Source of the DNA: a virus
Lineage: Duplodnaviria > Caudoviricetes
DNA: 53,900 nucleotides
Strand: one strand, 5' to 3'
IMG/VR virus record: IMGVR_UViG_3300030107_003563
Location: 1 to 53,900 of that record
Made by a program: the position numbers and the translations under genes. The notes beneath the pieces are model-generated. The model saw only the letters and a program-made list of their open reading frames with translations. It made no database searches and was not told where the DNA came from. Shown here piece after piece: positions 4,216-53,019 of the stretch. How positions within the stretch are numbered: position 1 is the first letter of the stretch; each line of letters begins with the position of its first letter.

Positions 4216-4556
4216 TTATTATGTTTTCTTAATATTTTATTTACTTCGTCCATTCGTTGTTTTATAATAGCACATTTTTCGTATGCTTCGTCTTCTTTGA
4301 ATAAATTCATTAGTGTCATAAGCTTTGCAGCCTCACCTAACGCATTTTCTTCTTCAGTGAGTTCAAGATCTTCATAAGCCGTTGACCAAGCTATGTCAGA
4401 CTTGGACACATGGATAAACCAGTCTTCCATAGACTTAAGTTTTACCATACGGCTTACGATCTTGATTGCTAATGTGTTAAGACCTTCTTCGCCAACTTTA
4501 AGGTCATTAATTTTATCTAATATTTGTTTGTTTGTTACACGTTTATTATCCGTCAT
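4212..4556 (-). CDS. Hypothetical protein with UVR-like C-terminal motif
   Basis: EDEAYEKCAIIKQRMD resembles UvrB/UvrC coiled-coil motif; start uncertain because it lies within a promoter-like motif. Confidence 0.55.
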   Translation of the reverse strand: MTDNKRVTNKQILDKINDLKVGEEGLNTLAIKIVSRMVKLKSMEDWFIHVSKSDIAWSTAYEDLELTEEENALGEAAKLMTLMNLFKEDEAYEKCAIIKQRMDEVNKILRKHNK

Positions 4557-4575
4557 TGTTCGTATTTATTTTGTA
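4545..4575 (-). promoter_or_regulatory. Class-A promoter-like motif TACAAAATAAATACG-N9-GGATAAT
   Basis: One mismatch to consensus of five copies; identical 9-nt spacer length. Confidence 0.6.
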
Positions 4576-4908
4576 TTTATCAATTAATTTCTGTGGTTCA
4601 CCTACGAATATACATTCAAAGTCATCACCATCACCATAACCTGCGAATATACTTATCCACGCGGCTTTACCTGGCGCCTGCCATACATAATATATGTACT
4701 CAAGATCGCCATGTCTAGCGTCAAGACGTTCTATTTCCCAACCTTCTACTTTGGTATATTTTTCTAAAGACTCTGCTATCTCTACACCTAATCCTTCTGG
4801 ATAACCATCACTGTGATTATAGAACTGCGCGTGTATAACATTTGGATGCTCGTTAAATGACACACCAACTTCTCTTGTTGCAAATCTAATCTGTGCTCTT
4901 GTGCTCAT
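4546..4908 (-). CDS. Hypothetical phage protein (HSDGYP motif)
   Basis: MSTRAQI...YNHSDGYPEGLG...EYIYYV pattern typical of a widespread phage family. Confidence 0.7.
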   Translation of the reverse strand: MSTRAQIRFATREVGVSFNEHPNVIHAQFYNHSDGYPEGLGVEIAESLEKYTKVEGWEIERLDARHGDLEYIYYVWQAPGKAAWISIFAGYGDGDDFECIFVGEPQKLIDKYKINTNNDG

Positions 4909-5170
4909 AATATTTCATTTTTAATGTTTCTATAATATTTCTACCTGTCGCTGTGTGAAAACCATAATTATGTGTATGTAATGCTGGTATTGGATCATTA
5001 AAGAATAACAATCTCATAAAATCTAATGCCTTTAATTCTTCATTAAATTCATTATTAAACTTTATAGCCATATCATTACAAGCTGCTGATATACAATCAG
5101 GACAATGTATTAGCTCTTCGTCTGATCTATAAGACATATAGTCTCTCACTTGTTTACTTGTTAATTTCAT
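4886..5170 (-). CDS. Hypothetical protein
   Basis: ORF in tightly packed minus-strand array. Confidence 0.6.
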   Translation of the reverse strand: MKLTSKQVRDYMSYRSDEELIHCPDCISAACNDMAIKFNNEFNEELKALDFMRLLFFNDPIPALHTHNYGFHTATGRNIIETLKMKYYEHKSTD

Positions 5171-5571
5171 TGTTGTAATTTTTCTACTGGGTGATTATCT
5201 GGTTCTGTTGTATCTAATTCCTCAGGGCACTTAGCTTCTTTAAATAGTTTACATACATTATTAACTATTTGCTCTGTTAATTCATAAGAACAAGATAAGT
5301 CAACGCTTTCAACATATACCTTACCATCATATTCCATACCAAACTCAAATTCATAGTTATCATTATTGCTAAAGTCAAAACCTTCAACGGCTTTTTCTAT
5401 AGCATTGTGAATATTATCAATCATCATTGGTGTAATTTCTGGTTTATTAATATCTTCAATTTGCTTTTCTAATTCTGCTATTTGATTTTGATACTCTCTA
5501 ACTTTATCGTTAGTTTCGCTTTGCAACAACTTTAATGCTGCCATGTTTGTTTCTAATTGTTCTTTTGTCAT
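5167..5571 (-). CDS. Hypothetical acidic coiled-coil protein
   Basis: ORF directly downstream of class-A motif; ATGA overlap with next gene. Confidence 0.7.
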   Translation of the reverse strand: MTKEQLETNMAALKLLQSETNDKVREYQNQIAELEKQIEDINKPEITPMMIDNIHNAIEKAVEGFDFSNNDNYEFEFGMEYDGKVYVESVDLSCSYELTEQIVNNVCKLFKEAKCPEELDTTEPDNHPVEKLQQ

Positions 5572-5594
5572 GTTTTTATTATTTATTTAATTAT

Positions 5595-5625
5595 ATTATC
5601 CGACTTACGTCGTATTTAGTTTGTA
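5595..5625 (-). promoter_or_regulatory. Class-A promoter-like motif TACAAACTAAATACG-N9-GGATAAT
   Basis: Consensus copy, 24 nt upstream of ORF start 5571. Confidence 0.7.
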
Positions 5626-5630
5626 ATAAA

Positions 5631-5779
5631 ACGAGGTCGGGCAGGTGTGGTTCTTTGCTTTATCCTGCCGTTCTGCCAAGTGAGTAAGATCGCTATATGA
5701 GTTAGTGGGCTACTGTCTTGCAGATTTATGCGCTAACTTCCAAGCGTACACGTCTCACGCGCTACCACCCTCACCTCGT
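5631..5779. ncRNA. Candidate structured RNA, family unknown
   Basis: GC-richer intergenic segment closed by ACGAGGT/ACCTCGT, with inner stems GGCAGG/CCTGCC, AGTTAG/CTAACT, GCGT/ACGC. Confidence 0.45.
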
Positions 5780-5810
5780 ATATTCACCTATGGTCTTTCG
5801 ACGAAGGGAA

Positions 5811-5948
5811 TTATTCATACCATATTGCGTATACTTTTACACCTTTAGGTTCACACATTAATATTTTTTTCTTTATTGGTTGTTCTTTTAATAGGCTTTT
5901 GTCCCAATATTTTGGATTCTTGCTGTTCAGTTTTCTTTTTTTCGTCAT
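5811..5948 (-). CDS. Small basic hypothetical protein (45 aa)
   Basis: Hand translation MTKKRKLNSKNPKYWDKSLLKEQPIKKKILMCEPKGVKVYAIWYE. Confidence 0.5.
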   Translation of the reverse strand: MTKKRKLNSKNPKYWDKSLLKEQPIKKKILMCEPKGVKVYAIWYE

Positions 5949-6013
5949 ATTTTTCTATGTTTTTTAATAGTTTTTCGTTTTGATCTTCTTGTTTTCTAAA
6001 TAATCTTATCATA

Positions 6014-6508
6014 TTATAGTATTTTATGTCTTACTCCGTTTACTGTTACACTTACTTCTGTAACAAAATTATTAATTTCGTCAATTCTTTTTTGTACTTC
6101 ATCTTCATATTTCCATTTAGGTATAAAATTACCACTTGATAACATATTAGCTTGACCAATATAATAGTTTTTGAGACAAAAGGCTATTAAATATTCTAAT
6201 CTATCTTGCTCGTTTGGTATTAATATTCTTTCAATTGAGTAATATTTATATCCACTTGGAAATGATTTTTCAAAGTTTTTCTTAGTTTTATTTAGCTGCC
6301 AACTCGGAGAATATCCACCTGCTTTAGTACGCCTTACATAACCACTAGCAAAAGTCGCTACATGCATTTCACCTCCATATTGATCTTTCATTGGTAACTT
6401 AAATTCACGTGTACCATTTTTCTTTTGTCTTTCAGTTGTAACCTCTTGAATATCAAGGAATTGCAACATTCTTTCTATTTCTACGAAATTGTTAAATTGT
6501 TTCTTCAT
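6014..6508 (-). CDS. Hypothetical protein
   Basis: 164-aa ORF in array. Confidence 0.7.
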   Translation of the reverse strand: MKKQFNNFVEIERMLQFLDIQEVTTERQKKNGTREFKLPMKDQYGGEMHVATFASGYVRRTKAGGYSPSWQLNKTKKNFEKSFPSGYKYYSIERILIPNEQDRLEYLIAFCLKNYYIGQANMLSSGNFIPKWKYEDEVQKRIDEINNFVTEVSVTVNGVRHKIL

Positions 6509-6509
6509 A

Positions 6510-6671
6510 TTACTCTGTTATTATTTTGTTATTACTATGTATCATCCACTCGCAATTAGACAAGTTGTGACCTTTTTCTTCCATAAATTCTATTAATTCT
6601 TCTTCTTGAAGACGCACTTTGTATTGGTATACTCTACCATTTTCAAAATCTAGTATTGTTACATATTCCAT
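6510..6671 (-). CDS. Small hypothetical protein (53 aa)
   Basis: MEYVTILDFENGRVYQYKV...GHNLSNCEWMIH; fills gap between neighbouring ORFs. Confidence 0.6.
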   Translation of the reverse strand: MEYVTILDFENGRVYQYKVRLQEEELIEFMEEKGHNLSNCEWMIHSNNKIITE

Positions 6672-6677
6672 ATTATA

Positions 6678-6890
6678 TTATTTTAATAGTGTTCCATAAC
6701 CTCTGCGTTGAGTCATCTTGGATATGCGAGCAGCATCACTCATCGACATGATTTGTATGCCGTTACCCGTTTTGTGATTGATTAGTGGCGCGCAACCATA
6801 TTGCTCTGTTGTAGAGCATTCAACACACACTTTATAGCCAAGATCGACTCTGCCTTGAGGTATTATATTATTACATTTACACTGCAACAT
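6678..6890 (-). CDS. DksA/TraR-like C4 zinc-finger protein
   Basis: CKC...IPQGR......CVEC spacing matches the TraR/DksA zinc-finger pattern. Confidence 0.55.
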   Translation of the reverse strand: MLQCKCNNIIPQGRVDLGYKVCVECSTTEQYGCAPLINHKTGNGIQIMSMSDAARISKMTQRRGYGTLLK

Positions 6891-7068
6891 AAGTAAGTCC
6901 TTTATAATTAAACCAACTAGTTATGTGAGAAAAGCCGTCTTTATCTACTTCACCGAATCTAGTGTCAGCAAGAGAGCAAATGGTATATGGTTTATAAGTA
7001 ATACCATTTAATTGGATTTTTTGTAGACCAGTGGTCATGCTTGGTTTTAAGAATTTAATTGTTTGCAT
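6877..7068 (-). CDS. Hypothetical protein
   Basis: First ORF after class-A motif at 7101-7131. Confidence 0.6.
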   Translation of the reverse strand: MQTIKFLKPSMTTGLQKIQLNGITYKPYTICSLADTRFGEVDKDGFSHITSWFNYKGLTYVAV

Positions 7069-7100
7069 AGTTATATAATTTTTATTTGTTTAACATTATT

Positions 7101-7131
7101 ATTATCCATTAGTGTTCGTATTTAGTCTGTA
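7101..7131 (-). promoter_or_regulatory. Class-A promoter-like motif TACAGACTAAATACG-N9-GGATAAT
   Basis: One mismatch to consensus; intergenic. Confidence 0.7.
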
Positions 7132-7133
7132 AA

Positions 7134-7478
7134 TTAGTCCATTTCATCACAGTTCATACAGTCATACATCTCTGACCTTGTAGTTCTTTCATCTATTCTG
7201 TAACGAAACAAGTCTGCCACTAAATTGTCATTTTCTGACTTTAGAGCTAATAATTCTTTAACATAATATATACCATTTTGTTGAGTAATTCTACCATAAT
7301 ACATATCCATTCTAATAGCACTTATAATATCGTCTATTTTTATATCTATCATATGGAATTTTGATATATTATTCTTGTAATTCACATCATTTATTGAGTC
7401 AACACATATTTGATTACATTGACTATAACCTACTCCTGCAATTAACAGTGCTGCTACACTTAATTTAATTTTCTTCAT
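7134..7478 (-). CDS. Hypothetical exported protein
   Basis: N-terminal signal-peptide-like MKKIKLSVAALLIAGVGYSQ. Confidence 0.6.
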   Translation of the reverse strand: MKKIKLSVAALLIAGVGYSQCNQICVDSINDVNYKNNISKFHMIDIKIDDIISAIRMDMYYGRITQQNGIYYVKELLALKSENDNLVADLFRYRIDERTTRSEMYDCMNCDEMD

Positions 7479-7614
7479 TTAATTTGTTTTTATGTTTAGT
7501 TTTTCTGTTGTATTTTTTCTTATTAACAAACGTCGAGGAGCCTGGTGGTCTCACACCTTGCTCGAGTTCTACTCGCCTTTTGACTCCTCGTTTCTGTTTG
7601 TTATTTAATTTCAT
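7465..7614 (-). CDS. Small basic protein with ArfA/BrfA-like C-terminal motif (49 aa)
   Basis: Hand translation MKLNNKQKRGVKRRVELEQGVRPPGSSTFVNKKKYNRKTKHKNKLNEEN; TAATG overlap with upstream gene. Confidence 0.55.
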   Translation of the reverse strand: MKLNNKQKRGVKRRVELEQGVRPPGSSTFVNKKKYNRKTKHKNKLNEEN

Positions 7615-7859
7615 TAATCTAGTGATGGTTCTATTCCGTTTTTTTCATCTATTTCTATACAGTTTGCTATTGCGTTTGCTAATAAATCTTGTGATTCTTG
7701 ACTATTAAACCAATCTTCTTTCTCCCATACATAGTAAATCCAATCATTTGCTTCACTCGCTGTCTCAAAGTAATTGTCGTAAGTATTACCATAACTATCA
7801 GTTACTTTTGCATGATACCAAGTATTATTATCTTTTCTTGTTATACTAAAATCTCTCAT
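7614..7859 (-). CDS. Hypothetical protein
   Basis: 81-aa acidic/aromatic ORF in array. Confidence 0.65.
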   Translation of the reverse strand: MRDFSITRKDNNTWYHAKVTDSYGNTYDNYFETASEANDWIYYVWEKEDWFNSQESQDLLANAIANCIEIDEKNGIEPSLD

Positions 7860-7861
7860 AT

Positions 7862-7975
7862 TTACTTTATTGTTAAAGTTATTAATTCAAATTCATCATT
7901 AGTAATCAATCCACTCATCAAAGCTAAGTATTCTGTACTAATATCTCTACCTGTTATTTTATTTATTATAGTCAT
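7862..7975 (-). CDS. Small hypothetical protein (37 aa)
   Basis: MTIINKITGRDISTEYLALMSGLITNDEFELITLTIK; stop 2 nt before next ATG. Confidence 0.5.
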   Translation of the reverse strand: MTIINKITGRDISTEYLALMSGLITNDEFELITLTIK

Positions 7976-8008
7976 AATTTCTATATTTTATTAGTTATAC
8001 ATTTTATT

Positions 8009-8051
8009 TAGTTGTAGTGTGAGAATCGAACTCACATTAACCATTACTACA
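8009..8051 (-). ncRNA. tRNA-like minihelix (acceptor stem plus T arm, no anticodon arm)
   Basis: TGTAGT-AATGGTTAAT-GTGAG-TTCGATT-CTCAC-ACTACA-ACTA. Confidence 0.55.
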
Positions 8052-8160
8052 TGTTACTCATTCGCATTTTTTATAACTCGCTAAACAAGTGGAACTACGA
8101 GTCTGCCCACTACACGCTAATCAGCACTTCACGTGTAGTTACTACTGGCAAGTTTTTATA

Positions 8161-8403
8161 CTACTCAGTAATTTGTAAGTCACGACAGAAAGCTGGTATT
8201 GCATTACTGTTTGTATATGACTTGTACTTTGCAAAACAATTCATTGCTTCAAATCTTTCTTTATGAGTATTATATACTTCATCATGATTATATGATACAT
8301 TTTCTTGTTTTTTGTTTACAAAAGTTATAATTGTATTTTTACCAATTAGACTTTTTCTAATTACAAATCTTTTAGTTGTTAAAGTGTTAGTTAATTTTGA
8401 CAT
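8161..8403 (-). CDS. Hypothetical protein, first gene of early arm
   Basis: Directly downstream of two tandem class-A motifs. Confidence 0.7.
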   Translation of the reverse strand: MSKLTNTLTTKRFVIRKSLIGKNTIITFVNKKQENVSYNHDEVYNTHKERFEAMNCFAKYKSYTNSNAIPAFCRDLQITE

Positions 8404-8449
8404 AGTTAATTTATTTTAGTTATTATTAATTTATTTTGTTTACATTTAT

Positions 8450-8480
8450 ATTATCCAATTTGTCTCGTATTTAGTTTGTA
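8450..8480 (-). promoter_or_regulatory. Class-A promoter-like motif
   Basis: Consensus copy; plus strand attatcc-aatttgtct-cgtatttagtttgta. Confidence 0.7.
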
Positions 8481-8589
8481 AAAGTATATTGTTTGTTTAT
8501 TATATAATTTACTATTGTATGTATTGCCGCGACTTTCTTATTGTATAATTTAATTTATTTAGTTGTTGTTATTTATTTGTTACATATAT

Positions 8590-8620
8590 ATTATCCAAAT
8601 GCTATCGTATTTAGTTTGTA
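8590..8620 (-). promoter_or_regulatory. Class-A promoter-like motif
   Basis: Consensus copy 140 bp from previous; plus strand attatcc-aaatgctat-cgtatttagtttgta. Confidence 0.7.
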
Positions 8621-26564: not shown

Positions 26565-26579
26565 GCAATTTTTAAAAGA

Positions 26580-26608
26580 CCGGGGCTTCGGCCTCGGCCT
26601 TTTATTTT
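26580..26608 (+). terminator. Rho-independent terminator after MCP
   Basis: CCGGGGC-TTCG-GCCTCGG followed by T-rich tract. Confidence 0.85.
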
Positions 26609-37644: not shown

Positions 37645-38001
37645 ATGCCTACATTAACACTAACTTTTCCACAAAAAATACAAACTTCAACACAGGTTGG
37701 AGATATGGTTTTATATTGCAACCCAAGTACTACAGCTGGTTTTTCTACAGCAGCGCAATCAGATGTTGTTTTTTTAGGTGCTTGTTTAACTATAGCTGCT
37801 GATAGATTGTCTATGACCGTAGATTATGATGCTAGTACAGTTATACCTACATCTAGTAGCTTTATACTTTTTAGCAAAGATAAGTATTGTAATCCAAGTG
37901 GTTTACTAGGTTACTATGCTAAAGTATGTTTTAGAAATAATTCCACTACTAAAGCTGAACTTTTTGGAATAAATGCTGATATGTTTGAAAGTAGTAAATA
38001 A
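37645..38001 (+). CDS. Hypothetical tail protein
   Basis: SGLLGYYAKV...KAELF; end of tail operon. Confidence 0.6.
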   Translation: MPTLTLTFPQKIQTSTQVGDMVLYCNPSTTAGFSTAAQSDVVFLGACLTIAADRLSMTVDYDASTVIPTSSSFILFSKDKYCNPSGLLGYYAKVCFRNNSTTKAELFGINADMFESSK

Positions 38002-38022
38002 TTAGCAAAAAGTGTGACTATA
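37995..38022 (+). promoter_or_regulatory. Class-B promoter-like motif TAAAT-N14-GTGACTATA
   Basis: Upstream of probable ejection-protein operon. Confidence 0.65.
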
Positions 38023-38041
38023 GACATATAAATCAAATTAA

Positions 38042-41887: not shown

Positions 41888-44800
41888 ATGAAAAAACCAA
41901 GTCCTTTTTTACAGGAAGTAGTTGAAGACATGTTGGAAAATGGCGCTAGCGAAAACGAGATAAAAGACGTTGTAGAAGTATATAGCGAAACTGGTGAGAA
42001 TCTATATGAGCAAGATCAAGAGATTATAGATGACTGTAATCGGAGAGAAGGATACTTTTGGAACTCAGAGGCTAATAATGGTTTAGGTGCTTGTGAGTTA
42101 GAAGTACAGATAGAAGACACTCCTAAAGAAGAAGATATAGATTTAGATTTTTTAACAGAAACTAGTGAGATTCAACCAAAGCAAAACGTAGAAGATTACG
42201 ATACTTTTTCCGAGCAAGTAGTAAGACATTTCGAAAAACTCCCGGTAGAAATGTGGGAGTTTCCAGATCAAGGCGGTTATTTGTTAGAAAACGAAATGTT
42301 TTTAAATGGACTTGACGTTTTAAGTAGACAGCTGGAAGAGGGTATTATTGAGCATTGGCCAGTAGACGATAATGGCGCACAAATACCTCTTGACTTTGAT
42401 GATTTAAAAATCTTTAACAACTACTTAACTATACGTAAGGATTATAATCCTTATGATGATGGCGAAATAGGTGAATCAGGTTATAGTGTGAATTTTGAAA
42501 AAGCTATTTTTGACTCTTATTTTACAAACCTTTCTAAGATGTTTGTGAAAACTACTAGGCCTTTGGATGACGCTTATGCTAGTGGTTATGGTAAAAACCA
42601 AAGAAAAGGACTTTTACCTCCAGCTATAAATAAAAGCGGTGTAGAAAGTGATGAGTTTTTAAAATATCTAATACAAGAATGTGATCATGTAAGGTTGTCT
42701 AGAGAATTAGACAGACTTGCTGAACGTAAAGGAACGGAAAGTTATAACGAGCTAGAAGAAGAGTATAATAGTATAAACGGTATAGAAAGAAAACATTGTT
42801 ATACGCTATCTTTAAATGCTTATGAAGACTACAGGGAGTGGGTTAATAATGACAAATTACCAACGGATTTAGGTGAGCTTGGTTTTGATAAAGTAGTAGA
42901 AAAAAGAACTCAACAATTACAATCAAATTTTTCAATTGAATTATCACGTAGCAATTGGGATCGTTATGCTAAGTTTTGGATTCTTAGGAGTCGTATTACT
43001 CAAGTTACAACTGATGATATTAAAATAGGAATGGGTCTTACGGATCCTTGGCTTACTGACAAAGACATGCGGGAAAGAGCCGAATTAGATCCTTCCCTAT
43101 ATAACACTGAAGAATTTAGAAATGCTATAAGAGACGAGAAAAAGAGGTACTATCGAAACATGCTTCCTAATGTTGAGGACTTCGAAGAGCAATTAACTAG
43201 TTGGACAGGGGGTTTAAACGAAACTAATTTAAGAAAAATACTTGTAGAATCATTCAAAAATCAATTTGGTGCAAATTGGGAGGGAACAACCCATAGCGTT
43301 GCTGGTGTAGAAATAGCTGAAACTGGCGATTGGGTTAATAAAGATGATTTTTGGATAGAAGAGTTGGTGGTTGGACTGGATGCTATTAGAGTTCACCATC
43401 CAAGTGGTTTTTATATGGATATAAACTTAGAAGGTGAGCCTGAGTGTTATAAATCAGGGGTTATTATGAAAAGCTATGAGAGAGATATATGTAAAGATAA
43501 AACTCATAAATGGCTTCAAACTATAATTAATTCTATATCTAACTTTATGGCTGGACCAAGTGATAAGTCTATAGACGGTGGTTATGCGTTTTCAGATAAT
43601 TGGGATGAAATTGGTTTTAAAATCATGCATAAGGACGGGAGAACGTGGGATGAAGTTAGAGATGCTGGTTTAACAAAAAGAAAATTAAATACTCTTAAAT
43701 TTGCTTATCCAGATCAACCAGAGATATTGTTAGAAGACATGGTTCATTCAGACCAAGGCGTGCCCTATACTTATGAAATGGCTGGGGGAACAGGATCTGA
43801 TTTAGCATGGTATAGAATAGATCAAGATGGCAACAAGCAGTTAATAGAAACCTGTGAAGAACAAGTAGCTAGATACATAGATTATAGAAACAAAGGAAAA
43901 GAATGGTACGGAGATGTTCCAAAATGTCAAACTAAAAACGAAAGTGAAGACTCTAAGTATGCGAGGGCTTTAAAATCTTTTTTAACATATAGATATTATT
44001 TCCAAACAAGAAGTTTAAATGGTATTCACGTGGGTTTACAGGGACCTAAATTAGAAAACAAGTTTTATTATCAAGCTCAAGAGAACTCTGTATTTATGGA
44101 TACAGATGTCGATAAAACAATAAGTATTTTATCTGAATGGTATGGTAAGTTAGGATTTACTTTTAGTAACACTAAAGACAAATACGGAGGTATTTCAAAA
44201 GCTTTTGGGGATTGTGCTGGTGAACAAATTGTAGTTACATATAAAGGTGATTCAATTAAATTTCCAACAGGTTTAGACTGTATGGTTTCAGAAACCAAAT
44301 ATATGGGTAGTGAAATGGCTCCTACGCCCACAGAGATTATCGCAGCTATTATAGGTAGTGCTAGAAATAAACTAACGTCTTTTATTGACAGTAAAATTGA
44401 TCCTGTTTATCTAACAAATGTAGAGTTAGACACAGCTATTTGGGATAGAATGTATGGCCCAGAAGGAGTGTTAAATCTTACTAAAAAACAAAAAGGAGAA
44501 TTAGAAGATTTTTTATACAACGAAGAAGATAAAATAAGAGCAGGTATAACAACGGCAGATTATAATGATTTAACCGCTGTAAGAGAAAAAATATATAAAG
44601 GTGATAAAGATAGTGAATACGCTGCGCAAATAAATTTAGCTATAAAAACTTTTAGAGATCTAGGTATTCCAAGCGATAAAATAACAGAGGAAAGAATAAT
44701 TGAATTTGTAACAAATATAATTAAAGCTAATAAAATTGATGAGTTTAGAGAAATTAATTTTTCTAAATGGTATCACAGCTCGCAAGGTAAACAAGATAAA

Positions 44801-47800
44801 AAATTTTGGAAAGACGCAGATAAAGAAGATATAAAAATAAAACTAGAAGCTATTGGAGCGGTTAAAGCAGGTGAAATAGAAATTGAAGTAGAAAACTCAC
44901 TAGAATTAATAAAAACCAAAGAGCAGCAAATTAAAACTAGTCCAGAGTATCAATGGGTACAAAGTCATTTAGATAATATATTAAACCCCGACCATCAATA
45001 TGAGTTAACTAACGCAGAAATACTTACTGGTGATTGGTATCGTGTTGAAACTGGTCCTGCGGCTGGGAAAATTATGCCGATGCGTATTGCTATTCAGTAT
45101 GCTATTTATCTTAAAGCTGTTGAAGAAAAATATGAAGTTTTAAACAAACAACGCGAGGAAGTTGATAAAAAAATATTTCAAATTGAAGATATTGATGCGT
45201 GTTTAAGAACTCTTCAAAAATCATATTCAACTACAGCTTGGATAAATTGGGATCATTTTATAGCTGGAGGACCCTTAACTTATTCAGGTTTAGTTGCACT
45301 ATTGAACTGGAACTCAATGGGAAGAGAAATGTATACGCATAATACAAAAGCTAAGCAGCTACGAATGTCAGAAGTTAGCCAGCATGCTAGAATAAGTTGG
45401 GATGAAGTTCGTGGCATTGATGATGCTTTAGGTTTTGCAGCGCAATTTTTTTCTGAACAAGCTTTTACGTTTGCAGTAATGGGTCCTTTTGGACTTACAG
45501 GGTCTATAGCTGCTAGGGCGGTAGGTGGAATAGTTGGTGGTACTGTTATAGCGTCAACTATGATGACTGGTACTTATTTACAAGCCTACGCTGTTCACGA
45601 AGCTAATGGTGGTACTTGGGATAATTTTGACCCAGACGGGACTGCAATGATGCAGGCTGTAGGTGTTGGTATATTAAACGGTGTGTCAGCGTTTTTCTCT
45701 ATGAGATATTTAGGTAATGTAGCTCAATTAATGCAAAAGTCTGGTACTATAAGAAACATATCAAGAGAGAGTATAATGTCAATGATGAAAAAATCATTAA
45801 ACCTTCAATCAGGTTATTTAGGTTCTAAACTAGCTGATATGTTTGTTGAAACTAGTACTGAACTTATAGAAGGTTATATAACAGGAGAACCTTTAGAAGC
45901 CAACCAAGCTTTAGATGTTTTCATGGAAGTAGGTTTATTTAATACAATACTTGGTTTTATACCTTCAATGAAAGGCGCTGTGTATTCATTCCTAGGAGAT
46001 CATAAGACAACAGAACAAATTCGAAAGAATGAAAAAATAAAGTTAGAAAATGAACAGTATGTATTAAACTGGCAAAAAGAAAGCGGTAGAGAGTTAGTTT
46101 TTGATGAAAATGGTAATATAGATTGGGAAAAAACAAATCAAAATGTAACAGATGGTTCTAAAAACAAAACTAAAGCTCACCAAGCTGGGTTTACGATAGA
46201 AGGAGTTGAGGCTAAACTTGAAGAAAACAAAAAATTACACGAGCAAAACATGTCAGATTTAAAGACAATATTTAATGCTGGTAATAAGTTTGATAAAGTA
46301 GCTTGGTTTGCTATAGGTGATATTTATAGACAGCAAGAAAGACTTAGAGTAAAATTTGAAAATATTCAAAATGACACTAGCTTATCAGCTGATGAAAAAA
46401 AGAAAAAATTAACTGACTTAACTATAGAGTTTAATGAGTTAGAGCAAGTAAGGGTAATGATGGTTAAAAATCCTCAAAGTAATCTTAGTAGATGGGGAGC
46501 TTTAATAAGTAGTAAGAAACAAGCTGATATAGATAAAGCAAACACAATAAGAGAAAGAGTAATTGAAAAGTATAAAAAAGATAATAACGGTAAAACACCA
46601 AGTGATGAAGAAATCGCTTCTCTAGCCTCTCAAGAATACCATGCTGAGTTAATTAGAGAAGATGATGCAAATGTACCTAAAAGAACAAACCTATCTAAAA
46701 GTCATGAGTTAAAAGAATCTATAGATGATGCGGTAACATACTTAACAGATTTATTTAATGATGCTATACAAAAAGTAAAAGCATCAGGAGATTCTCCCGC
46801 AAGAGTGAACGCTCTAAAAAGAGAATTAGAAGCGGCTATTAATGGTATAAGAAATGGTAATCACGGTGTAAACTTTAGTTTAGAACCTTGGAAAAAAGGT
46901 GAAGATCAAAAAAGACAATCTATAACGGTTGTTGAAAATGCTTCTAGAGATGGTAGAACAGAAAATAGAACTCATGAGTTGGGTCACACTGTATTTATAG
47001 AGCAGCTAGGGTTAAACCCAGAGTCGTATCAAGCTTTATCACAAATGGCACTAGAGTTTTTACAAAAACACCATCCACAATTGTTTATACAAATACAATA
47101 TGGTGTTGAAAGAAAAAAGAATAATTTAACTGGTGCTAATGAACTTGTTGCTGATGAAGTTGTGATGAGGTTTTTGGAATTCGTTGGAGATGGTAAAGTT
47201 GATTTGAATAGTAAAAACGCTAATGGACTTGCCACTATGATGATGTATTTTTCAAGTAAAGCTATATCAAAAGATACTAATGCTCAATTTGGTTATAGAC
47301 TAGATGGCGAAGCTGGTGCTATTAATTTTTTAATATCATTAGGTAAAAAAATAAAAGAAGGAACGTTTACTAGAAAAGATGTAGAAACTATTCGTAAAAA
47401 CCAATTTATACAAGAAGCTAAAGACAAAAACGCTGCTAAAGTATACAATACCAACGTGAAAATGAGTGTAGCTCAAGCTGCAAAAGTTAACAAGATTCAC
47501 GAGGAAGAAGGTGATACTGAGATGGGTATTTGGAAAATTATGGAAGAATACGAAGGTATGCTTAATAAAATAGCAAGTGTTTATTCTAATGTACCTGGGT
47601 ATTTTGAAAGCAAGCAAGATTTTATTGATGAAGTTAAAGTTTCTTCTTTTACAAATAATAAAGGAGAACCATATAGAAGTTTATATACATTGATAAAAGA
47701 ATATGATCCATCTACTGGCGTACCTTTATCTGCTTGGATAAATAAATATATAAAAGTTAGGGCTATTGAAGCCGCGGAAAGAATATTTAATTTTGATGGA

Positions 47801-50800
47801 GCTAACATCCAGTACGACGAAAATGCTAGTTATGATATAGTTGATAACTCTGATTCAATAATAGAATCAACAGAAGGTGTTATTGAGACAGGCGAACTAA
47901 GGAAAATACTAGGTATAGATATAGAAAGTGATTTAGCAAAAGAAGTTATATCTACAGTAGAAAATATTATTGCAGAAGATCCAAGTTTTGATGTTAACGA
48001 AAAGAAATTTAGACAAGGTTTAGAAAAAAGATTTGTTGATGCTTTTAGAATTAAAATAAAAGAATTAATTGGTAAAGATAAAGAATCGTTTTCTAATTTC
48101 TTAATAGAAAATAAAGATGCTATTACTAGTTTAATAGCTTTTAAATATAAAAATAGATTTCCAGAATTAACTAAAGGAACAGGTGCAAGAGAAAAAACCG
48201 CACAAGGAAATCAGATATTTGAGTTAGTAAAAATGTCCGATGAAGATTTTGTTGCTTTATTCACAGAGGGTAGAAAAGGTTGGGAAACTAGAAGAAATAG
48301 TTTGATAGATGCATTATCTGCTGAACTTGGTTTAGATGCTACATTTGACGCTTATAAAACTGTTAATCCTGATGGTTTAGAAAATAATTTAGCTTATATA
48401 ACAACCGCTATAGATAGAGATTCCAATGTTAAGTTTAGTCACGCGGGAACAATATGGGATATAACCGCTGAATATCGAGGCGATTCACAACGTTTTACAA
48501 ATGATGTTAGAGCTATATTCATGACCATGACTACTAATCAAAATTTTTTAGAAAGATTAGATAAAGAAAACTGGACTTTACTTGGTTATGATTTCCCACC
48601 AGCAGCTGTAGCTTGGACTTATAAGAATTTTTATGATCCAAACGATAACGCTATAAGCCAAAGATATATGAGCGTTATAAAGAACAACCCTAACCTTAAA
48701 GGTAATCCTGCTTTAGAAGGCTTTTTAAATCAAGGTACTTTTAGATATGATGAAGACGCTCAAGCTGAACAACACAATGCTAACTATGTTGTTGTGACAG
48801 AGTTTTTACCTGCTAGTATATGGGAGTTATTAAATGGTAGAGGTTTTGGTTATATTAAAAGAGGTATGGATGCCGCTGCTAGTAAGCTTAACGAAAAAGG
48901 CCCTAGAAAAGATGGTAAGAAAATGCCAGCTAGCAACCTGTCACACCGTGGTAAAACTCCACTACAGGTAAAAAACTGGGAGTTTGATTATGAAAAAGGA
49001 TTATTTGTTGGAACCGTTAATGGTGAAATCGTAACTAGCTTAGACCCAGTAAAAGAACATGGAGCTAAACTTATAACTGGTAAGCATTTTTTAAATTATA
49101 ACAGTATAAACGATAATTTAAACGAAGACTTAGAGTTTGATCAAGAGATTATTGATAATGTTAGAATAATGAATAAGGATGTTAACGGTGGTATTATGGC
49201 TAGGTATGACGCTATTAGATATGGTAGTGTAGAGGAGTATGGAGAGTATGGCACTGTGGAAAGAAGAAACAAACAAATAGCAGCGATAAAACTAATGTTA
49301 CCAGAAGTAATAGCTGCTAACAAAGCTAATGTTGAAATAGTTGTTACTTTAAATCAAGCTTGGTTTAATGCTATGTTATCTGGAAAAGTTAATGGTGCTC
49401 AATATTTAAGATTTTTACAATTACAAACAAACGACACATTAGGACCTAAAGGATTATCAACTATCACTGGTATACAATTACCCAACGAACCTAGAAAAGA
49501 GGGTGATAAAACACAAGGAGAGCATTTAATCGTTAATGCAGAGACTATGGCTAAAACAGCTGATTTAATGGCTAGAGCTCTTGAGTTTGATTCTGATGGA
49601 AATGTTATTGGATATAAAAAAGGTTTTGACGCGGACAAAGTAAAGGCAGAATTACAAAAAATATACAAAGCAAATACTCAGTTATTATTAGATGGTACTA
49701 TCAGTCAAGAGATGGATGCTGGACCTGGTGGCAAGACTAGTAGTGCTGCCGAACAAAGAGTTAACTTTATAAAGAGTGACGTTGATTTAATATCTATTGA
49801 CGGTACAGATTATAACGAAAGTGTACAAGATCAAAAAATTAATGATGCGGTAGAAGAATTAACAGCAGAACAAGAAATTATAAATATTAAAAATAGTAAA
49901 GTACAATCTGCTATAGAAAATATTATAGATAAATCAAATAACAACGCGGAAGTACAAGGCGCTAGCGTGTTTGATTTTGACGAGACTGTTGGTATTAGTG
50001 ATAACTATGTTATAGCAACTCGTTATAACAAAGAAACAGGCGTAACAGAGGAAGTTAGAATATCATCTGCTGATTGGCCAACCATGGGAGAGAAAATGAT
50101 TAACGAAGGTTGGACTATGGATTTTTCAGACTTTAACAAAGTAACAGATGGAAAACCTGGACCATTATTACCTAAGTTAAAAAATCAAATAGAAAAATAT
50201 GGTGTTGATAACGTTTATATATTAACAGCAAGAGCAGCTGAAAGTGCTGAAGCTATAAAAGCTTGGTTAGCATCTGAAGGTATAGATTTACCTATAGAAA
50301 ATATCGTTGGATTAGGAGATAGTACCGGCCAGGCTAAAGCTGATTGGATAGAGCAAACTCTTATATTTAACGGGTTTAATGATATATATTTTGTAGATGA
50401 TGCATTTTCTAACGTAGATGCTGTTGATAAAATGTTTAATAAATATCCTCCAGGTTTAATTGCCGATGGAGGTAAGTCTGTTTTGGTTAGACCTGAGCAT
50501 AGAGAAACACATGTTAAGTTTAGTGATAAAACTAATAACGAAACAATGAATATTTTTATCGAACAAACTTCTGGCGTTGATAGAAATAAAAGATATTCCG
50601 CGGCTCAAGCTAGGTTAAAAAGCGCGGCTAAATCTATGTTTAGTTTTAACAATCTTATACCTTATTCGGCTGAAGATTTTAGAGGTTTGTTATATCAGTT
50701 TTTAGCTTCAGGGGATATTGGTGAATACCAAATGGCTTGGTTTGAGGAAAAACTTATAAAACCTTATAGTAATGGTGAATTAAAAATTCAAGAAGCTAAA

Positions 50801-52993
50801 GTAGCTATAACAGAAGCATTTAATAAGTTAAAGAAAGATTTACCTAAAATTCAAAAATCTTTAAAAGAAAGAATAGAAAGACCAGATGGTAGGGATAGTG
50901 GTTTTACGATAGACCACGCTATAAGATTATATCTTTGGCATAAAAATGGTATTGTAACACCAAAGAATGCTAGTAAAAAATTAGGAATATCTAAAAGAGA
51001 TTATGATTTACTATTAAACACGGTATTAGCCGACCAAGGCTTAATAACATTCGCCAATCATTTAGGTGCAGCAACAGGTTTAAAAGAAGGATATGTTCAA
51101 CCTGGTAAACACTGGACGGTAGAAAATATAGCTAGCGATATTAGTAATGCTATAAACGTTGTTGGAAGAGAAACATATTTGTCAGAATTTATTAAAAATA
51201 AAAACGAAATATTTTCTGAAGAAAACTTAAATAAAATAGAGGCTATACACGGTATTAAGTTTAGAGAAGCTCTTGAGAATATATTAGACCGTATGGAAAC
51301 CGGTAAGTCTCAAGGAAAAACAGTGGTAAAAACGGACAGAGTTACAAACATGTATAATAATTGGGTAAATAATTCTGTTGGTGCCATCATGTTCTTAAAT
51401 GGTAGATCCGCTGTGTTACAGACACTTTCGACTTTTAATTACGTTAAAATGACAGGGCCTAATAATATGGTTAATGCCGCTGCAGCTTTTGCTAATCAAC
51501 CTCAATTTTGGGCAGACTTTGTTGCTCTTTGGAAATCTGACTACTTAGTGTCAAGAAGATCTGGCCAACAACGTGGTATTAACGAAGCTGAATTAATGGC
51601 AGCTGTAGAAAAAGCAGACAACAAAGCGAAAGCAGCTGTAGCTTGGTTATTAGAAAAAGGGTTTTTACCTACACAAATAGCTGATAGTTTTGCTATTGCA
51701 GCTGGAGGAGCTGGATACGTTAGAAACTACGCTAATTCAATTGAGAGTATATTATCTGGTGATCCAGCTACTATGTTTGATGATCAAGTTATATTTACGC
51801 AATCAGACTTAGATGCCGCGCTAGAAGGTAGAAATTTAAGTGATTTAAGTCCAGAAGAGATAAATCAACTAGCTTTTGAAATGGCAAAACAAAAGTGGGT
51901 ATTAGAAACAGAATCTGGCCAGCAGTCGTCAAGACAAGATATGTTATCTCAACAACAAACAGGAGGTTTAGGTAGGTTGATACTTGCTTTTAAAAATACT
52001 CCAATGCAGTATACTAGAAAGATACTTAGATCTGTACAAGATCTTAAAAACGGTAGAGGTAATCCCGCTGATCATATTAGTAAAATAGCATACTACGGTG
52101 TTGTTCAAAACATGATGTTTACAGGATTACAACAAGCATTATTTGCTAAGCTAGGTGAAGATGACGAAGAGTGGGATAAATCTACTGACAAGGTTATACA
52201 AGGTATGGTTGATAATATATTAAACGGTATGGGATTAACTGGAGCTGTTGTAGTTACTGTTAAAAACGGAGTTCTTGAATTCCAAGAGCAAGATAAAAAA
52301 GGTTGGAATGCTGATCACACTTATACTGTTTTAGAATTTGCAAACTTCTCTCCTACAATAGGTAGTAAACTTAGGAAAATATATAGTTCAATAAAAGGAC
52401 AGCAAATAAATGAAGACGTAATAGCTGAAATGGACTTATGGGATCCTCAAAACCCAGCTTGGGCATCTGTTGCAAACTTAATATCTGGACTAACAAATGT
52501 ACCTTTAGATAGAGCTGTTAATAAAATAAACAATATAATAGCGGCTACAAATAGTGAGAACGAGTTTTGGCAACAATTAGCATTAGTTTTAGGTTGGAAC
52601 ACTTGGGATGTTAATGTTACAACAAAAAGAGATGAGGTTAGAGATATAGTTAAAGAAGAGAAAAAGTATATAAACAAGCAAAACAAGCGTATTGAAAAGC
52701 AGGTTGAAGTTGACAAAGAGGTTGAAGAAGAGGTTAAGGCTGAAGAAGAAGGAAAAGGTAAAGACGTTAATAGATGTGGTGCCACGAAAAGTGATGGCAC
52801 GGGAAGATGTAACGAACCTGTTGATAAAGCTGGACAAAAATGTCAATACCACGCCTCTAAAGAAGAGTTAAAAAACAGGCCAAAGTGCTCGTTCATAAAG
52901 AAAAATGGAAAACAATGTGGTAATTACGCGGTGACTGATGCCGGTGTGTGTAATGTGCCACAACACCAACCTGATTATAAAAAAAGTAAATAA
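41888..52993 (+). CDS. Giant polyvalent virion protein (3701 aa): TM region, HExxH metallopeptidase, sigma-like segment, HAD domain, C-terminal Cys/His fingers
   Basis: HELGH at aa 1696; YDPSTGVPLSAWINKYI; DFDET at aa 2696, ILTAR, FVDD; two C-terminal C..C..C..H units. Confidence 0.75.
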   Translation: MKKPSPFLQEVVEDMLENGASENEIKDVVEVYSETGENLYEQDQEIIDDCNRREGYFWNSEANNGLGACELEVQIEDTPKEEDIDLDFLTETSEIQPKQNVEDYDTFSEQVVRHFEKLPVEMWEFPDQGGYLLENEMFLNGLDVLSRQLEEGIIEHWPVDDNGAQIPLDFDDLKIFNNYLTIRKDYNPYDDGEIGESGYSVNFEKAIFDSYFTNLSKMFVKTTRPLDDAYASGYGKNQRKGLLPPAINKSGVESDEFLKYLIQECDHVRLSRELDRLAERKGTESYNELEEEYNSINGIERKHCYTLSLNAYEDYREWVNNDKLPTDLGELGFDKVVEKRTQQLQSNFSIELSRSNWDRYAKFWILRSRITQVTTDDIKIGMGLTDPWLTDKDMRERAELDPSLYNTEEFRNAIRDEKKRYYRNMLPNVEDFEEQLTSWTGGLNETNLRKILVESFKNQFGANWEGTTHSVAGVEIAETGDWVNKDDFWIEELVVGLDAIRVHHPSGFYMDINLEGEPECYKSGVIMKSYERDICKDKTHKWLQTIINSISNFMAGPSDKSIDGGYAFSDNWDEIGFKIMHKDGRTWDEVRDAGLTKRKLNTLKFAYPDQPEILLEDMVHSDQGVPYTYEMAGGTGSDLAWYRIDQDGNKQLIETCEEQVARYIDYRNKGKEWYGDVPKCQTKNESEDSKYARALKSFLTYRYYFQTRSLNGIHVGLQGPKLENKFYYQAQENSVFMDTDVDKTISILSEWYGKLGFTFSNTKDKYGGISKAFGDCAGEQIVVTYKGDSIKFPTGLDCMVSETKYMGSEMAPTPTEIIAAIIGSARNKLTSFIDSKIDPVYLTNVELDTAIWDRMYGPEGVLNLTKKQKGELEDFLYNEEDKIRAGITTADYNDLTAVREKIYKGDKDSEYAAQINLAIKTFRDLGIPSDKITEERIIEFVTNIIKANKIDEFREINFSKWYHSSQGKQDKKFWKDADKEDIKIKLEAIGAVKAGEIEIEVENSLELIKTKEQQIKTSPEYQWVQSHLDNILNPDHQYELTNAEILTGDWYRVETGPAAGKIMPMRIAIQYAIYLKAVEEKYEVLNKQREEVDKKIFQIEDIDACLRTLQKSYSTTAWINWDHFIAGGPLTYSGLVALLNWNSMGREMYTHNTKAKQLRMSEVSQHARISWDEVRGIDDALGFAAQFFSEQAFTFAVMGPFGLTGSIAARAVGGIVGGTVIASTMMTGTYLQAYAVHEANGGTWDNFDPDGTAMMQAVGVGILNGVSAFFSMRYLGNVAQLMQKSGTIRNISRESIMSMMKKSLNLQSGYLGSKLADMFVETSTELIEGYITGEPLEANQALDVFMEVGLFNTILGFIPSMKGAVYSFLGDHKTTEQIRKNEKIKLENEQYVLNWQKESGRELVFDENGNIDWEKTNQNVTDGSKNKTKAHQAGFTIEGVEAKLEENKKLHEQNMSDLKTIFNAGNKFDKVAWFAIGDIYRQQERLRVKFENIQNDTSLSADEKKKKLTDLTIEFNELEQVRVMMVKNPQSNLSRWGALISSKKQADIDKANTIRERVIEKYKKDNNGKTPSDEEIASLASQEYHAELIREDDANVPKRTNLSKSHELKESIDDAVTYLTDLFNDAIQKVKASGDSPARVNALKRELEAAINGIRNGNHGVNFSLEPWKKGEDQKRQSITVVENASRDGRTENRTHELGHTVFIEQLGLNPESYQALSQMALEFLQKHHPQLFIQIQYGVERKKNNLTGANELVADEVVMRFLEFVGDGKVDLNSKNANGLATMMMYFSSKAISKDTNAQFGYRLDGEAGAINFLISLGKKIKEGTFTRKDVETIRKNQFIQEAKDKNAAKVYNTNVKMSVAQAAKVNKIHEEEGDTEMGIWKIMEEYEGMLNKIASVYSNVPGYFESKQDFIDEVKVSSFTNNKGEPYRSLYTLIKEYDPSTGVPLSAWINKYIKVRAIEAAERIFNFDGANIQYDENASYDIVDNSDSIIESTEGVIETGELRKILGIDIESDLAKEVISTVENIIAEDPSFDVNEKKFRQGLEKRFVDAFRIKIKELIGKDKESFSNFLIENKDAITSLIAFKYKNRFPELTKGTGAREKTAQGNQIFELVKMSDEDFVALFTEGRKGWETRRNSLIDALSAELGLDATFDAYKTVNPDGLENNLAYITTAIDRDSNVKFSHAGTIWDITAEYRGDSQRFTNDVRAIFMTMTTNQNFLERLDKENWTLLGYDFPPAAVAWTYKNFYDPNDNAISQRYMSVIKNNPNLKGNPALEGFLNQGTFRYDEDAQAEQHNANYVVVTEFLPASIWELLNGRGFGYIKRGMDAAASKLNEKGPRKDGKKMPASNLSHRGKTPLQVKNWEFDYEKGLFVGTVNGEIVTSLDPVKEHGAKLITGKHFLNYNSINDNLNEDLEFDQEIIDNVRIMNKDVNGGIMARYDAIRYGSVEEYGEYGTVERRNKQIAAIKLMLPEVIAANKANVEIVVTLNQAWFNAMLSGKVNGAQYLRFLQLQTNDTLGPKGLSTITGIQLPNEPRKEGDKTQGEHLIVNAETMAKTADLMARALEFDSDGNVIGYKKGFDADKVKAELQKIYKANTQLLLDGTISQEMDAGPGGKTSSAAEQRVNFIKSDVDLISIDGTDYNESVQDQKINDAVEELTAEQEIINIKNSKVQSAIENIIDKSNNNAEVQGASVFDFDETVGISDNYVIATRYNKETGVTEEVRISSADWPTMGEKMINEGWTMDFSDFNKVTDGKPGPLLPKLKNQIEKYGVDNVYILTARAAESAEAIKAWLASEGIDLPIENIVGLGDSTGQAKADWIEQTLIFNGFNDIYFVDDAFSNVDAVDKMFNKYPPGLIADGGKSVLVRPEHRETHVKFSDKTNNETMNIFIEQTSGVDRNKRYSAAQARLKSAAKSMFSFNNLIPYSAEDFRGLLYQFLASGDIGEYQMAWFEEKLIKPYSNGELKIQEAKVAITEAFNKLKKDLPKIQKSLKERIERPDGRDSGFTIDHAIRLYLWHKNGIVTPKNASKKLGISKRDYDLLLNTVLADQGLITFANHLGAATGLKEGYVQPGKHWTVENIASDISNAINVVGRETYLSEFIKNKNEIFSEENLNKIEAIHGIKFREALENILDRMETGKSQGKTVVKTDRVTNMYNNWVNNSVGAIMFLNGRSAVLQTLSTFNYVKMTGPNNMVNAAAAFANQPQFWADFVALWKSDYLVSRRSGQQRGINEAELMAAVEKADNKAKAAVAWLLEKGFLPTQIADSFAIAAGGAGYVRNYANSIESILSGDPATMFDDQVIFTQSDLDAALEGRNLSDLSPEEINQLAFEMAKQKWVLETESGQQSSRQDMLSQQQTGGLGRLILAFKNTPMQYTRKILRSVQDLKNGRGNPADHISKIAYYGVVQNMMFTGLQQALFAKLGEDDEEWDKSTDKVIQGMVDNILNGMGLTGAVVVTVKNGVLEFQEQDKKGWNADHTYTVLEFANFSPTIGSKLRKIYSSIKGQQINEDVIAEMDLWDPQNPAWASVANLISGLTNVPLDRAVNKINNIIAATNSENEFWQQLALVLGWNTWDVNVTTKRDEVRDIVKEEKKYINKQNKRIEKQVEVDKEVEEEVKAEEEGKGKDVNRCGATKSDGTGRCNEPVDKAGQKCQYHASKEELKNRPKCSFIKKNGKQCGNYAVTDAGVCNVPQHQPDYKKSK

Positions 52994-53014
52994 TTATAAA
53001 AATAAGTGACTATA
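52987..53014 (+). promoter_or_regulatory. Class-B promoter-like motif TAAAT-N14-GTGACTATA
   Basis: 5 nt upstream of ATG 53020. Confidence 0.65.
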
Positions 53015-53019
53015 GAAAA

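Follow-up and report, generated by a model that had tools for sequence, protein, structure and literature searches.

The stretch of DNA considered here is the whole of the IMG/VR virus record IMGVR_UViG_3300030107_003563 (53.9 kb, with a completeness rating of ~90%; hereafter 'the window'), in which a giant open reading frame (ORF) encodes a protein of 3701 amino acids (aa). Within this protein lies a two-domain module, at aa 1861–2184, of which the first domain (module residues 1–110) is very probably a true and very divergent sigma domain 2. The giant ORF is the last large gene of a rightward block that encodes GroEL/GroES, terminase, portal and virion structural proteins, and the leftward block of the window carries early-type genes, i.e., those for an Erf-like annealing protein, a 252-aa sigma factor and a DNA ligase. 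The presence of a sigma domain 2-like domain beside virion genes suggests, without proving it, that a factor for the targeting of transcription enters the cell with these phages. The module is not filed among the sigma factors proper, as it scores below the Pfam membership threshold and is devoid of a detectable region 4.

A sigma-70 domain 2-like domain in a virion-block protein

A sequence-only reading of the window had marked positions 47468–48439 as a sigma-factor-like segment, with a sigma-70 region 2 pattern in the peptide IMEEYEG...AIEAAER and with VKMS and VKFS as its bounds. Translation returns this segment exactly, in coordinates as well as sequence, as aa 1861–2184; the peptide corresponds to module residues 24–105 (nucleotides 47537–47782), VKMS directly precedes the segment and VKFS forms its end. 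The giant ORF and the parts of the module are located as follows:

41888..52993, plus strand: giant ORF, 3701 aa, last of the large genes in the virion block, with genes for terminase, portal and virion structural proteins as its upstream neighbours
47468..47797, plus strand: sigma-70 domain 2-like domain, module residues 1–110, matching regions 1.2–2.4 of the aligned sigma chains
47798..47881, plus strand: acidic linker, predicted to be disordered, module residues 111–138 (predicted local distance difference test, pLDDT, below 50; net charge -7, with no Lys or Arg)
47882..48439, plus strand: second domain, module residues 139–324, consisting of helices and one beta-hairpin in a separate model, with no recognised fold

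The resemblance of the first domain to sigma-70 region 2 is above chance, an AlphaFold-based fold search, hhalign and hmmsearch being in agreement. An AlphaFold2 model of the module, built with alignment A1 (42 relatives), has a pLDDT of 85.6 and resolves into two domains, with residues 111–138 disordered between them. When this model was compared with 48,161 PDB chains by VIA-align, the first 29 rows were all sigma factors or transcription-initiation complexes (24 titles name a sigma factor, and the other five are initiation complexes), with Z scores of 5.4–7.9 and all on model residues 1–115. The sigma factors represented among these top rows include SigB, ShbA, SigC, sigma-28, AlgU, pro-sigma-K, SigW, RpoS, sigma-32, SigR, CnrH, sigma-E and sigma-70. 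The best row, 8x6g_H, has a Z score of 7.9 and a root-mean-square deviation (rmsd) of 2.7 over 89 aligned residues, and most rows have an rmsd of 2.4–3.9 over 73–95 residues.

Profile comparisons lead to the same region. A profile hidden Markov model (HMM) of the N-terminal domain of the module (N-domain), made from 125 sequences and run by hmmsearch with its filters off (--max) against a seven-sequence target set, matched four of the six Escherichia coli sigma factors, i.e., RpoS, FliA, RpoD and RpoH, at region 2 and in one register (E 5e-5 to 7.5e-4); RpoE reached 0.11 and FecI was not among the matches listed. Alignment of the 125-sequence profile to a profile of the six E. coli sigmas by hhalign gave P 1e-4 over 58 columns in the register of regions 2.1–2.3, and P 9e-4 with an expanded profile, versus P 0.33 and 0.43 for reversed controls. 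For the isolated 112-aa domain, Sigma70_r2 is the sole Pfam family at E<=1, and seven of its 30 ESM-Atlas feature neighbours are Sigma70_r2 clusters. The best-conserved stretch of the module, RG[IL]xDLIxxYxPxxGVPLAAYIN, falls on sigma regions 2.2–2.4 in the alignment; in its longer form, the family motif DEIxTGxRG[IL]xDLIxxYxPxxGVPLAAY is aligned to DLIxEGNxGLxxAVxKFDxxxGxxFSTYA of the E. coli sigmas. Divergent relatives give weak matches on profile positions 57–98, which coincide with this same stretch, and the copy in the window carries a nine-residue insertion in the loop resembling region 2.2.

A number of results weigh against this assignment, or against a sigma-like role for the module. 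The VIA-align Z scores, at 7.9 or less, lie in a range that is common for helical models, and the fold argument thus rests on the uniformity of the top rows rather than on the score. The Sigma70_r2 match is below the Pfam gathering score (12.8 versus 24 bits, and 12.2 bits in a six-frame scan), PF04542 was found on the module in none of 30 relatives' records, and a Pfam scan of the 42 members of alignment A1 listed no family in more than one member. Foldseek returned nothing at E<=0.001 from PDB and BFVD; its weak sigma rows stand at PDB ranks 15 and 34 and, in BFVD, comprise seven named phage sigmas among the first 34 rows. The region 2.2/2.3 residues that presumably correspond to Q406, E407, N409 and W433 in sigma-70 numbering are not kept in the alignment, and the sigma domain 2-like domain, the linker and the second domain are all net acidic. 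Neither sigma-3 nor sigma-4 was found in the second domain, for which no sigma chain occurs among 50 VIA-align rows, and tblastn of the segment against 50,697 phage records returned no cultured phage with the module. Furthermore, plain searches (Pfam, PHROG, and phmmer and the family profile against PDB sequences) gave no sigma match, and the best BLASTP alignment between the module segment and the phage's own stand-alone sigma has E 0.62. Co-folding of the sigma domain 2-like domain with residues 150–450 of RPOC_FLAJ1 gave 0.36 versus 0.29 for the control, which counts neither way.

The sequence-only reading had pointed to sigma-2 and sigma-4 as the folds to be sought in the segment, and this expectation was borne out in part: a sigma-2 fold is predicted, and neither a sigma-4 nor a sigma-3 domain was detected in residues 139–324. 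Modelled alone, the second domain has a pLDDT of 85.9 and a predicted template modelling score of 0.82. Its best VIA-align Z score is 5.3, a few winged-helix rows at Z 3.9–4.6 being leads only; Foldseek gave nothing at E<=0.001, and hhalign against the sigma profile gave P 0.37. The layout of a sigma-2 domain, an acidic linker and a second domain resembles that of the two-domain extracytoplasmic function (ECF) sigma factors.

Compared with the sigma-70 family (PF04542), the predicted fold of the module superposes on the sigma-2 domain of known sigmas, whereas its setting differs: the module lies inside a protein of 2000–4000 aa, sigma factors being free factors of 170–620 aa, and it falls below the Pfam cut-off with no region 3 or 4 detected. 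A parallel in domain content is offered by T4 gp55, a minimal late sigma that consists of sigma-2 only and that is free, newly made and dependent on gp33 and the sliding clamp. Chain F of 7d7d (the T4 gp45-dependent activation complex), which we take to be gp55, is the fourth VIA-align row (Z 7.2, rmsd 2.8, 92 aligned residues). The module differs from the free gp55 in being fused into a virion-block giant and in having a second domain of its own.

The giant protein and its relatives

The giant ORF encodes a multidomain phage protein of the polyvalent type, and the sigma domain 2-like segment is part of its conserved two-domain module. When relatives are mapped onto the 3701 residues, four shared blocks emerge, at aa ~1650–1860, 1861–2184, ~2700–2870 and 2880–3600. 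Apart from the parts of the module, the following features were located on the protein:

45494..45964, plus strand: two hydrophobic, glycine-rich stretches, aa 1203–1225 and 1341–1359 (Kyte-Doolittle 19-aa windows of at least 1.4), possibly membrane-active to judge from their composition
46835..47455, plus strand: putative zincin-like metallopeptidase region, with HELGH at aa 1696–1700 (nucleotides 46973–46987) and a conserved Glu1757 (nucleotides 47156–47158)
47456..47467, plus strand: VKMS, aa 1857–1860, directly before the module; among relatives, [KR][FML]S occurs at -12 to +3 of the module start in 27 of 97
48227..48238, plus strand: VKMS, aa 2114–2117, internal to the second domain and without conservation in relatives
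48428..48439, plus strand: VKFS, aa 2181–2184, end of the module
49955..50524, plus strand: HAD-phosphatase-like region with DFDET at aa 2696–2700 (weak matches to PHROG 415, E 0.0056, and Pfam HAD, E 0.14)
50513..50524, plus strand: a third such site, VKFS, aa 2876–2879, after the HAD-like region
50525..52747, plus strand: C-terminal domain of ~720 aa with conserved motifs, conserved among the giant proteins
52748..52990, plus strand: Cys/His-rich C-terminal tail, zinc-ribbon-like (zf-primase, E 0.0015, below the cut-off)

Polyvalent proteins have been described as giant multidomain proteins of phages and plasmids that are delivered together with the DNA (Iyer et al. 2017, PMC5512222). The trait of many unrelated domains in one giant polypeptide is found here as well, in the form of the HExxH region, the sigma domain 2-like module, the HAD-like region, the C-terminal domain and the Cys-rich tail. 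The HAD-like block is common to about 54 relatives in the conservation map. The C-terminal domain occurs in all 45 relatives' records that bear the stand-alone sigma, at 36–75% identity, and its nearest named ESM clusters are LPD39 (28% of members) and LPD38 (63%); since none of the Pfam LPD and MPTase models is significant on the giant protein, this cluster link is a lead only. The domain found no match by tblastn in the 50,697 phage records mentioned above, and DUF5763 was found in the C-terminal tails of two relatives. Some giant relatives with the N-domain, i.e., P0158 and BFVD A0A218MLT5, additionally carry Zeta-toxin-type kinase and AAA families (PF06414, PF13671, PF13238). As these families are present in only some of the giant relatives, interior cargo is swapped between lineages.

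The putative peptidase region directly precedes the module. HELGH at aa 1696 is the only HExxH of the giant protein, and exactly one HExxH is present in 36 of 37 full-length giants. The module begins about 150–250 residues behind this HExxH and its Glu throughout. In 93 of 101 relatives, an HExxH precedes the module by 140–319 aa, as compared with none of 185 control windows of the same proteins, and both HE.lH and a Glu 61 residues further on are at least 80% conserved in 105 sequences. The Pfam MPTase family is not matched by this region. The zincins of polyvalent proteins, for which a processing role has been proposed, are marked by HExxH and a Glu (PMC5512222), and the putative peptidase region in the giant protein has the same signature.

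The string VK[MF]S occurs four times in the giant protein (aa 1857, 2114, 2181 and 2876), where 0.063 occurrences are expected, and none of 2000 shuffles reached four. Steps in homology coverage coincide with three of the four sites, i.e., those at aa 1857, 2181 and 2876. Related ends of the form K-[FML]-S or K-x-S precede the module in many relatives, and KFS is about twofold enriched among 108 giant relatives (157 versus 73.4). A role for VK[MF]S as a universal delimiter was rejected, as [KR][FML]S is nearby in no more than 27 of 97 cases at the start of the module and in 12 of 53 at its end; for that reason these strings are considered candidate cleavage sites of a subgroup and not a rule. 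In pro-sigma-K and pro-sigma-E, the extra sequence before sigma-2 is removed by a metalloprotease, and the SpoIVFB:pro-sigmaK structure 8vjl is the seventh VIA-align row. The giant protein shares with these a putative zincin, here in cis, and a K-[FML]-S site at the N-terminal edge of the sigma domain 2-like domain; it differs in that cleavage would be performed by a protease within the same polypeptide and in that the 'pro' part would amount to 1860 residues.

Relatives of the module were collected by a HMMER scan of 1.84 billion representatives, which yielded 149 at E<=1e-3 and 56 at E<=1e-10, nearly all of them inside proteins of 1000–4068 aa. In IMG/VR, the N-domain is encoded in 236 of 367 candidate stretches, and the giant gene is preceded, in each of the 80 viral loci that were kept, by a homologue of the 2008-aa virion structural protein. 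A word-indexed search found no free-standing module, i.e., no protein of 178–567 aa at E<=1e-5, the short matches having the appearance of cut ORFs. Among bacterial genomes, only two short contigs of metagenome-assembled genomes carry the module, and they provide no prophage or host clue. The module is near-universal in a group of uncultured phages of 58–96 kb with terminases similar to those of Flavobacterium and Cellulophaga phages.

Detection of the module depends on the sensitivity of the search. Quick screens reported it in eight of 44 sigma-bearing records, and another profile (A3) gave 20 matches, many of them to the part preceding the module only. With a local hmmsearch run with --max, 19 of the 37 full-length giants proved positive, a number that rose to 31 of 37 when the profile was iterated four times, always in the same place after the HExxH; the module was undetected after iteration in G032, G035, G048, G049 and G053, and iterated profiles can drift. 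Its identity to the copy in the window is only 14–37% in records where the stand-alone sigma is 60–93% identical.

By its terminase (65%), the closest deposited record is MW202828.1, which has a 3859-aa ORF in the same slot (741–12320, minus strand). This ORF is without BLASTP similarity to the giant protein of the window, and its annotation as 'reticulocyte binding/rhoptry protein' looks spurious; neither the sigma nor the class-A early motif (see below) was found in this record. The giant-gene slot is hypervariable between phage groups.

Giant or packaged proteins that enter the cell with the DNA and act on early, non-host promoters are known from the virion RNA polymerases, i.e., those of N4, the crAss-like phage phi14:2 (gp66) and phiKZ. 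The sequence-only reading had found no crAss-type RNA polymerase catalytic motif in the giant protein, and the present checks agree: Pfam, PHROG and PDB sequence searches returned no polymerase family and there is no D.DGD string. Two D.D.D strings occur, both of them in N-terminal parts with poor conservation, and the C-terminal domain is without an acidic triad. No polymerase domain was detected in the giant ORF, and the module would have to borrow the host core enzyme. For polyvalent proteins, a delivery theme of 'jump-start transcription or replication' has been named, with transcription started by fused N4-like RNA polymerases and with the N4 enzyme itself fused to zincin domains (PMC5512222). 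The giant protein of the window is thus similar to polyvalent proteins as a giant multidomain polypeptide with HExxH and Glu and with LPD38/LPD39-like C-terminal leads, and it differs in that its module is sigma-like, whereas polyvalent proteins are described as starting transcription by fused polymerases (PMC5512222). The word 'sigma' is absent from the main text of that paper, whose supplements list 40 novel domains. The literature search, which covered passages of main texts, brought up neither a packaged sigma nor a virion or polyvalent protein with a sigma-like domain.

The phage encodes a GroEL (window 11207–12772, plus strand; phrog_5725, E 1e-133) and a GroES-like co-chaperonin (18502–19083, plus strand; E 1e-14) of its own, which may be needed for the folding of very large phage proteins. 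Directly before the giant ORF, a 904-aa ORF (39165–41879) ends in a (GPPQ)n repeat at its C-terminus, encoded by four to five copies of the 12-nucleotide tandem repeat CCACCTCARGGA (41737–41800, plus strand).

The class-A motif and the stand-alone sigma factor

The sequence-only reading had proposed that an injected sigma-like factor directs the host RNA polymerase to class-A early promoters, and that the stand-alone sigma serves a second set, class B. The elements concerned are:

1196..1954, minus strand: stand-alone phage sigma factor, 252 aa, with regions 2 and 4
4544..8612, minus strand: class-A early promoter-like motif AAATACGA-N8-GGATAATA, five copies, each just upstream of a minus-strand ORF
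4544..4567, 5594..5617, 7100..7123, 8449..8472 and 8589..8612, minus strand: the individual class-A copies

The identity of the stand-alone sigma is confirmed by its matches to Sigma70_r2 (24.2 bits), Sigma70_r4 (19.5 bits) and phrog_351 (E 4.7e-23). Its family is very abundant, all 8000 scored candidates having E<=1e-5 and the best 120 being 70–99% identical; these relatives come mostly from short metagenome contigs, and some sources name a sigma-70 family factor.

The class-A motif sits within a longer conserved element. In a first set of relatives, clustered, same-strand copies were present in all seven records that are at least 90% complete, and the motif read backwards, as a control, gave 0–1 copies; in a second set, it was present in 38 of 44 records. 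The gene for the stand-alone sigma lies 2–6 kb downstream of the class-A cluster and on the same strand, in the window as well as in all nine relatives that have both. Because the sigma gene is thus located downstream of the cluster, a factor present at time zero is needed to start that transcription. The Bacteroidota promoter consensus is taken here as TTG-N17–22-TAnnTTTG. The class-A motif does not fit this consensus, which itself has eight matches in the window versus 7.9 in shuffles, none of them in the early intergenic regions.

Over its 16 bases the class-A motif hardly changes, the one variable position being the first base of the -10-like half, where G, A, C or T occurs. Lineage variants have AGATAATA, CGATAATA or TGATAATA in place of GGATAATA, with AAATACGA and GATAATA fixed; by record, the first base is A in G033, G070, G066, G045 and G056, C in G057 and G074, and T/C in G044. 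Such natural variation could identify the protein that reads the motif. A co-variation test of the first base (G, A and C classes) against residues gave no separating column in either the stand-alone sigma or the module, the classes being few and related and taken from a partial motif listing.

Genomes apparently without the module were considered as a control for its link to the motif. Of 36 such apparent negatives, 23 have at least three class-A copies; the control was rejected, as local searches recovered the module. Since the module was found in 31 of 37 giants after iteration, the apparent independence of motif and module is void, and no genome clearly without the module was found to take its place.

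A point that weighs against the module as reader is that an invariant motif fits the conserved stand-alone sigma better than it does a fast-changing module. Of the earlier proposal, the existence of the motif, its conservation and its misfit to the above host consensus stand; the module as its specific reader is disfavoured. A class-B promoter set for the stand-alone sigma could not be established, there being only two copies of one candidate motif. This candidate late (perhaps 'class-B') promoter, AGTAAATAATTA-N9–10-AAGTGACTATAGA, is located at 37988–38029 and 52980–53021 (plus strand), directly upstream of the ORFs at 38042 and 53020, and looser GTnACTATA-like strings occur before the ORFs at 8899 and 17207.

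Two other features of the window are recorded here. A paralogous family of seven small ORFs with the common N-terminus MAFKMKG... and a conserved A-rich leader upstream occupies 9646–15440 (plus strand), with ATG codons near 9661, 10308, 14156, 14364, 14793, 15016 and 15425. At ~26565–26605 (plus strand), a G+C-rich hairpin followed by T's (ggggcttcggcctcggcc-tttt) resembles a terminator and directly follows ORF 25131–26564, which encodes a virion structural protein, probably the capsid protein.

A proposed role at the start of infection

Sigma domain 2 attaches to the RNA polymerase core by way of the beta-prime clamp helices and keeps hold of the melted strand at -10. The interpretation that we favour, and that we put forward as a tentative one, is a docking-and-delivery picture in which the module acts as a 'starter'. 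The giant protein would be packaged and would exit the capsid with the DNA, as is described for polyvalent proteins and the N4 virion RNA polymerase; the putative zincin would cut it and thereby free the sigma domain 2-like module, which could then dock, at time zero, on the beta-prime clamp helices of the host RNA polymerase core. The freed module would bring the host polymerase onto the entering DNA for the first transcripts of the early leftward genes, including that of the stand-alone sigma, which would take over afterwards. A pre-existing factor would be useful in this respect because the sigma gene lies downstream of the class-A cluster and host-type promoters are not in excess. In a more specific form of this scheme, an injected 'pro-sigma' would be borne in the capsid within a giant polyprotein and freed by the zincin on entry, and would load the host core onto the incoming phage genome to start the early operon that includes the full sigma; we regard this form as rather doubtful. 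That the module reads the class-A motif directly and specifically is considered unlikely, and is the weaker side of the picture.

The same sigma domain 2-like domain, whether delivered or made late, might instead act as a decoy or modulator that occupies the clamp helices and displaces the host sigma with no initiation of its own, so that host transcription would be shut off or retuned. A sigma-2 fold in the absence of a detectable sigma-4, the loss of some melting and core-contact residues (as presumably numbered above) and a fast divergence that is typical of conflict proteins are all in keeping with such a function, as is the presence in the phage of a full stand-alone sigma to serve the phage promoters. 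Polyvalent proteins are, moreover, described as carriers of host-takeover effectors (PMC5512222, PMC7824862). Yet the beta-prime surface that would be targeted is highly conserved, so that fast divergence is not obviously needed, and the conserved second domain and linker would be left unexplained by a simple decoy; we judge a decoy improbable. Much the same holds for a reused sigma-2 fold, i.e., a helical adaptor, for example for folding, capsid packing, or binding of DNA ends or of single-stranded DNA during ejection, that makes no contact with the polymerase. The likeness is at the level of the fold and weak in sequence, conservation is very low apart from one stretch, the module is net acidic, and the zincin and the C-terminal domain invariably accompany it, as would be expected for a structural unit. 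However, the one well-conserved stretch is that aligned to sigma regions 2.2–2.4, which is expected if a sigma-like surface is under constraint, and we consider such reuse unlikely as well.

Two further explanations appear considerably less probable. The giant protein could be made late for assembly or for a task in the cytoplasm, with no delivery, in which case the module, if it acts on transcription, would do so late in the producing cell. Its gene lies in the late structural block and has no PHROG family match, as would suit such a protein, yet in all 80 loci the gene stands at the close of the virion block, and the size, zincin, hydrophobic stretches and LPD-like leads of the protein match packaged polyvalent and ejection proteins as described; a role confined to the producing cell seems quite improbable. 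It is similarly hard to credit that an unrelated bundle of four to five helices superposes on sigma domain 2 by chance. All Z scores are below 8, the Foldseek result is not significant, and the Pfam match is below the cut-off and is not replicated in relatives; against this, the first 29 listed rows out of 48,161 chains are without exception sigma factors or initiation complexes, independent sequence tests arrive at the same residues and register on four of six E. coli sigmas, the hhalign P of 1e-4 compares with 0.33–0.43 for reversed profiles, and the ESM features likewise favour a sigma domain.

Two routes are known by which phages begin an infection, i.e., by means of the host holoenzyme on host-like promoters, or with an RNA polymerase of their own, as in N4, crAss-like phages and phiKZ. 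If the docking-and-delivery picture is true, the phages described here would represent a third and cheaper route, in which only a specificity or docking subunit is brought along and the catalytic core is borrowed from the host. Should the module prove to be a decoy or a reused fold, the present analysis would still be of use in annotating a large 'dark' protein family, albeit of less general interest. Being common, the module bears on host takeover by an abundant group of aquatic phages. It is also an example from nature of a sigma-2 domain whose partner domain is other than sigma-4, and with it the known contents of polyvalent proteins come to include a domain like that of a transcription factor.

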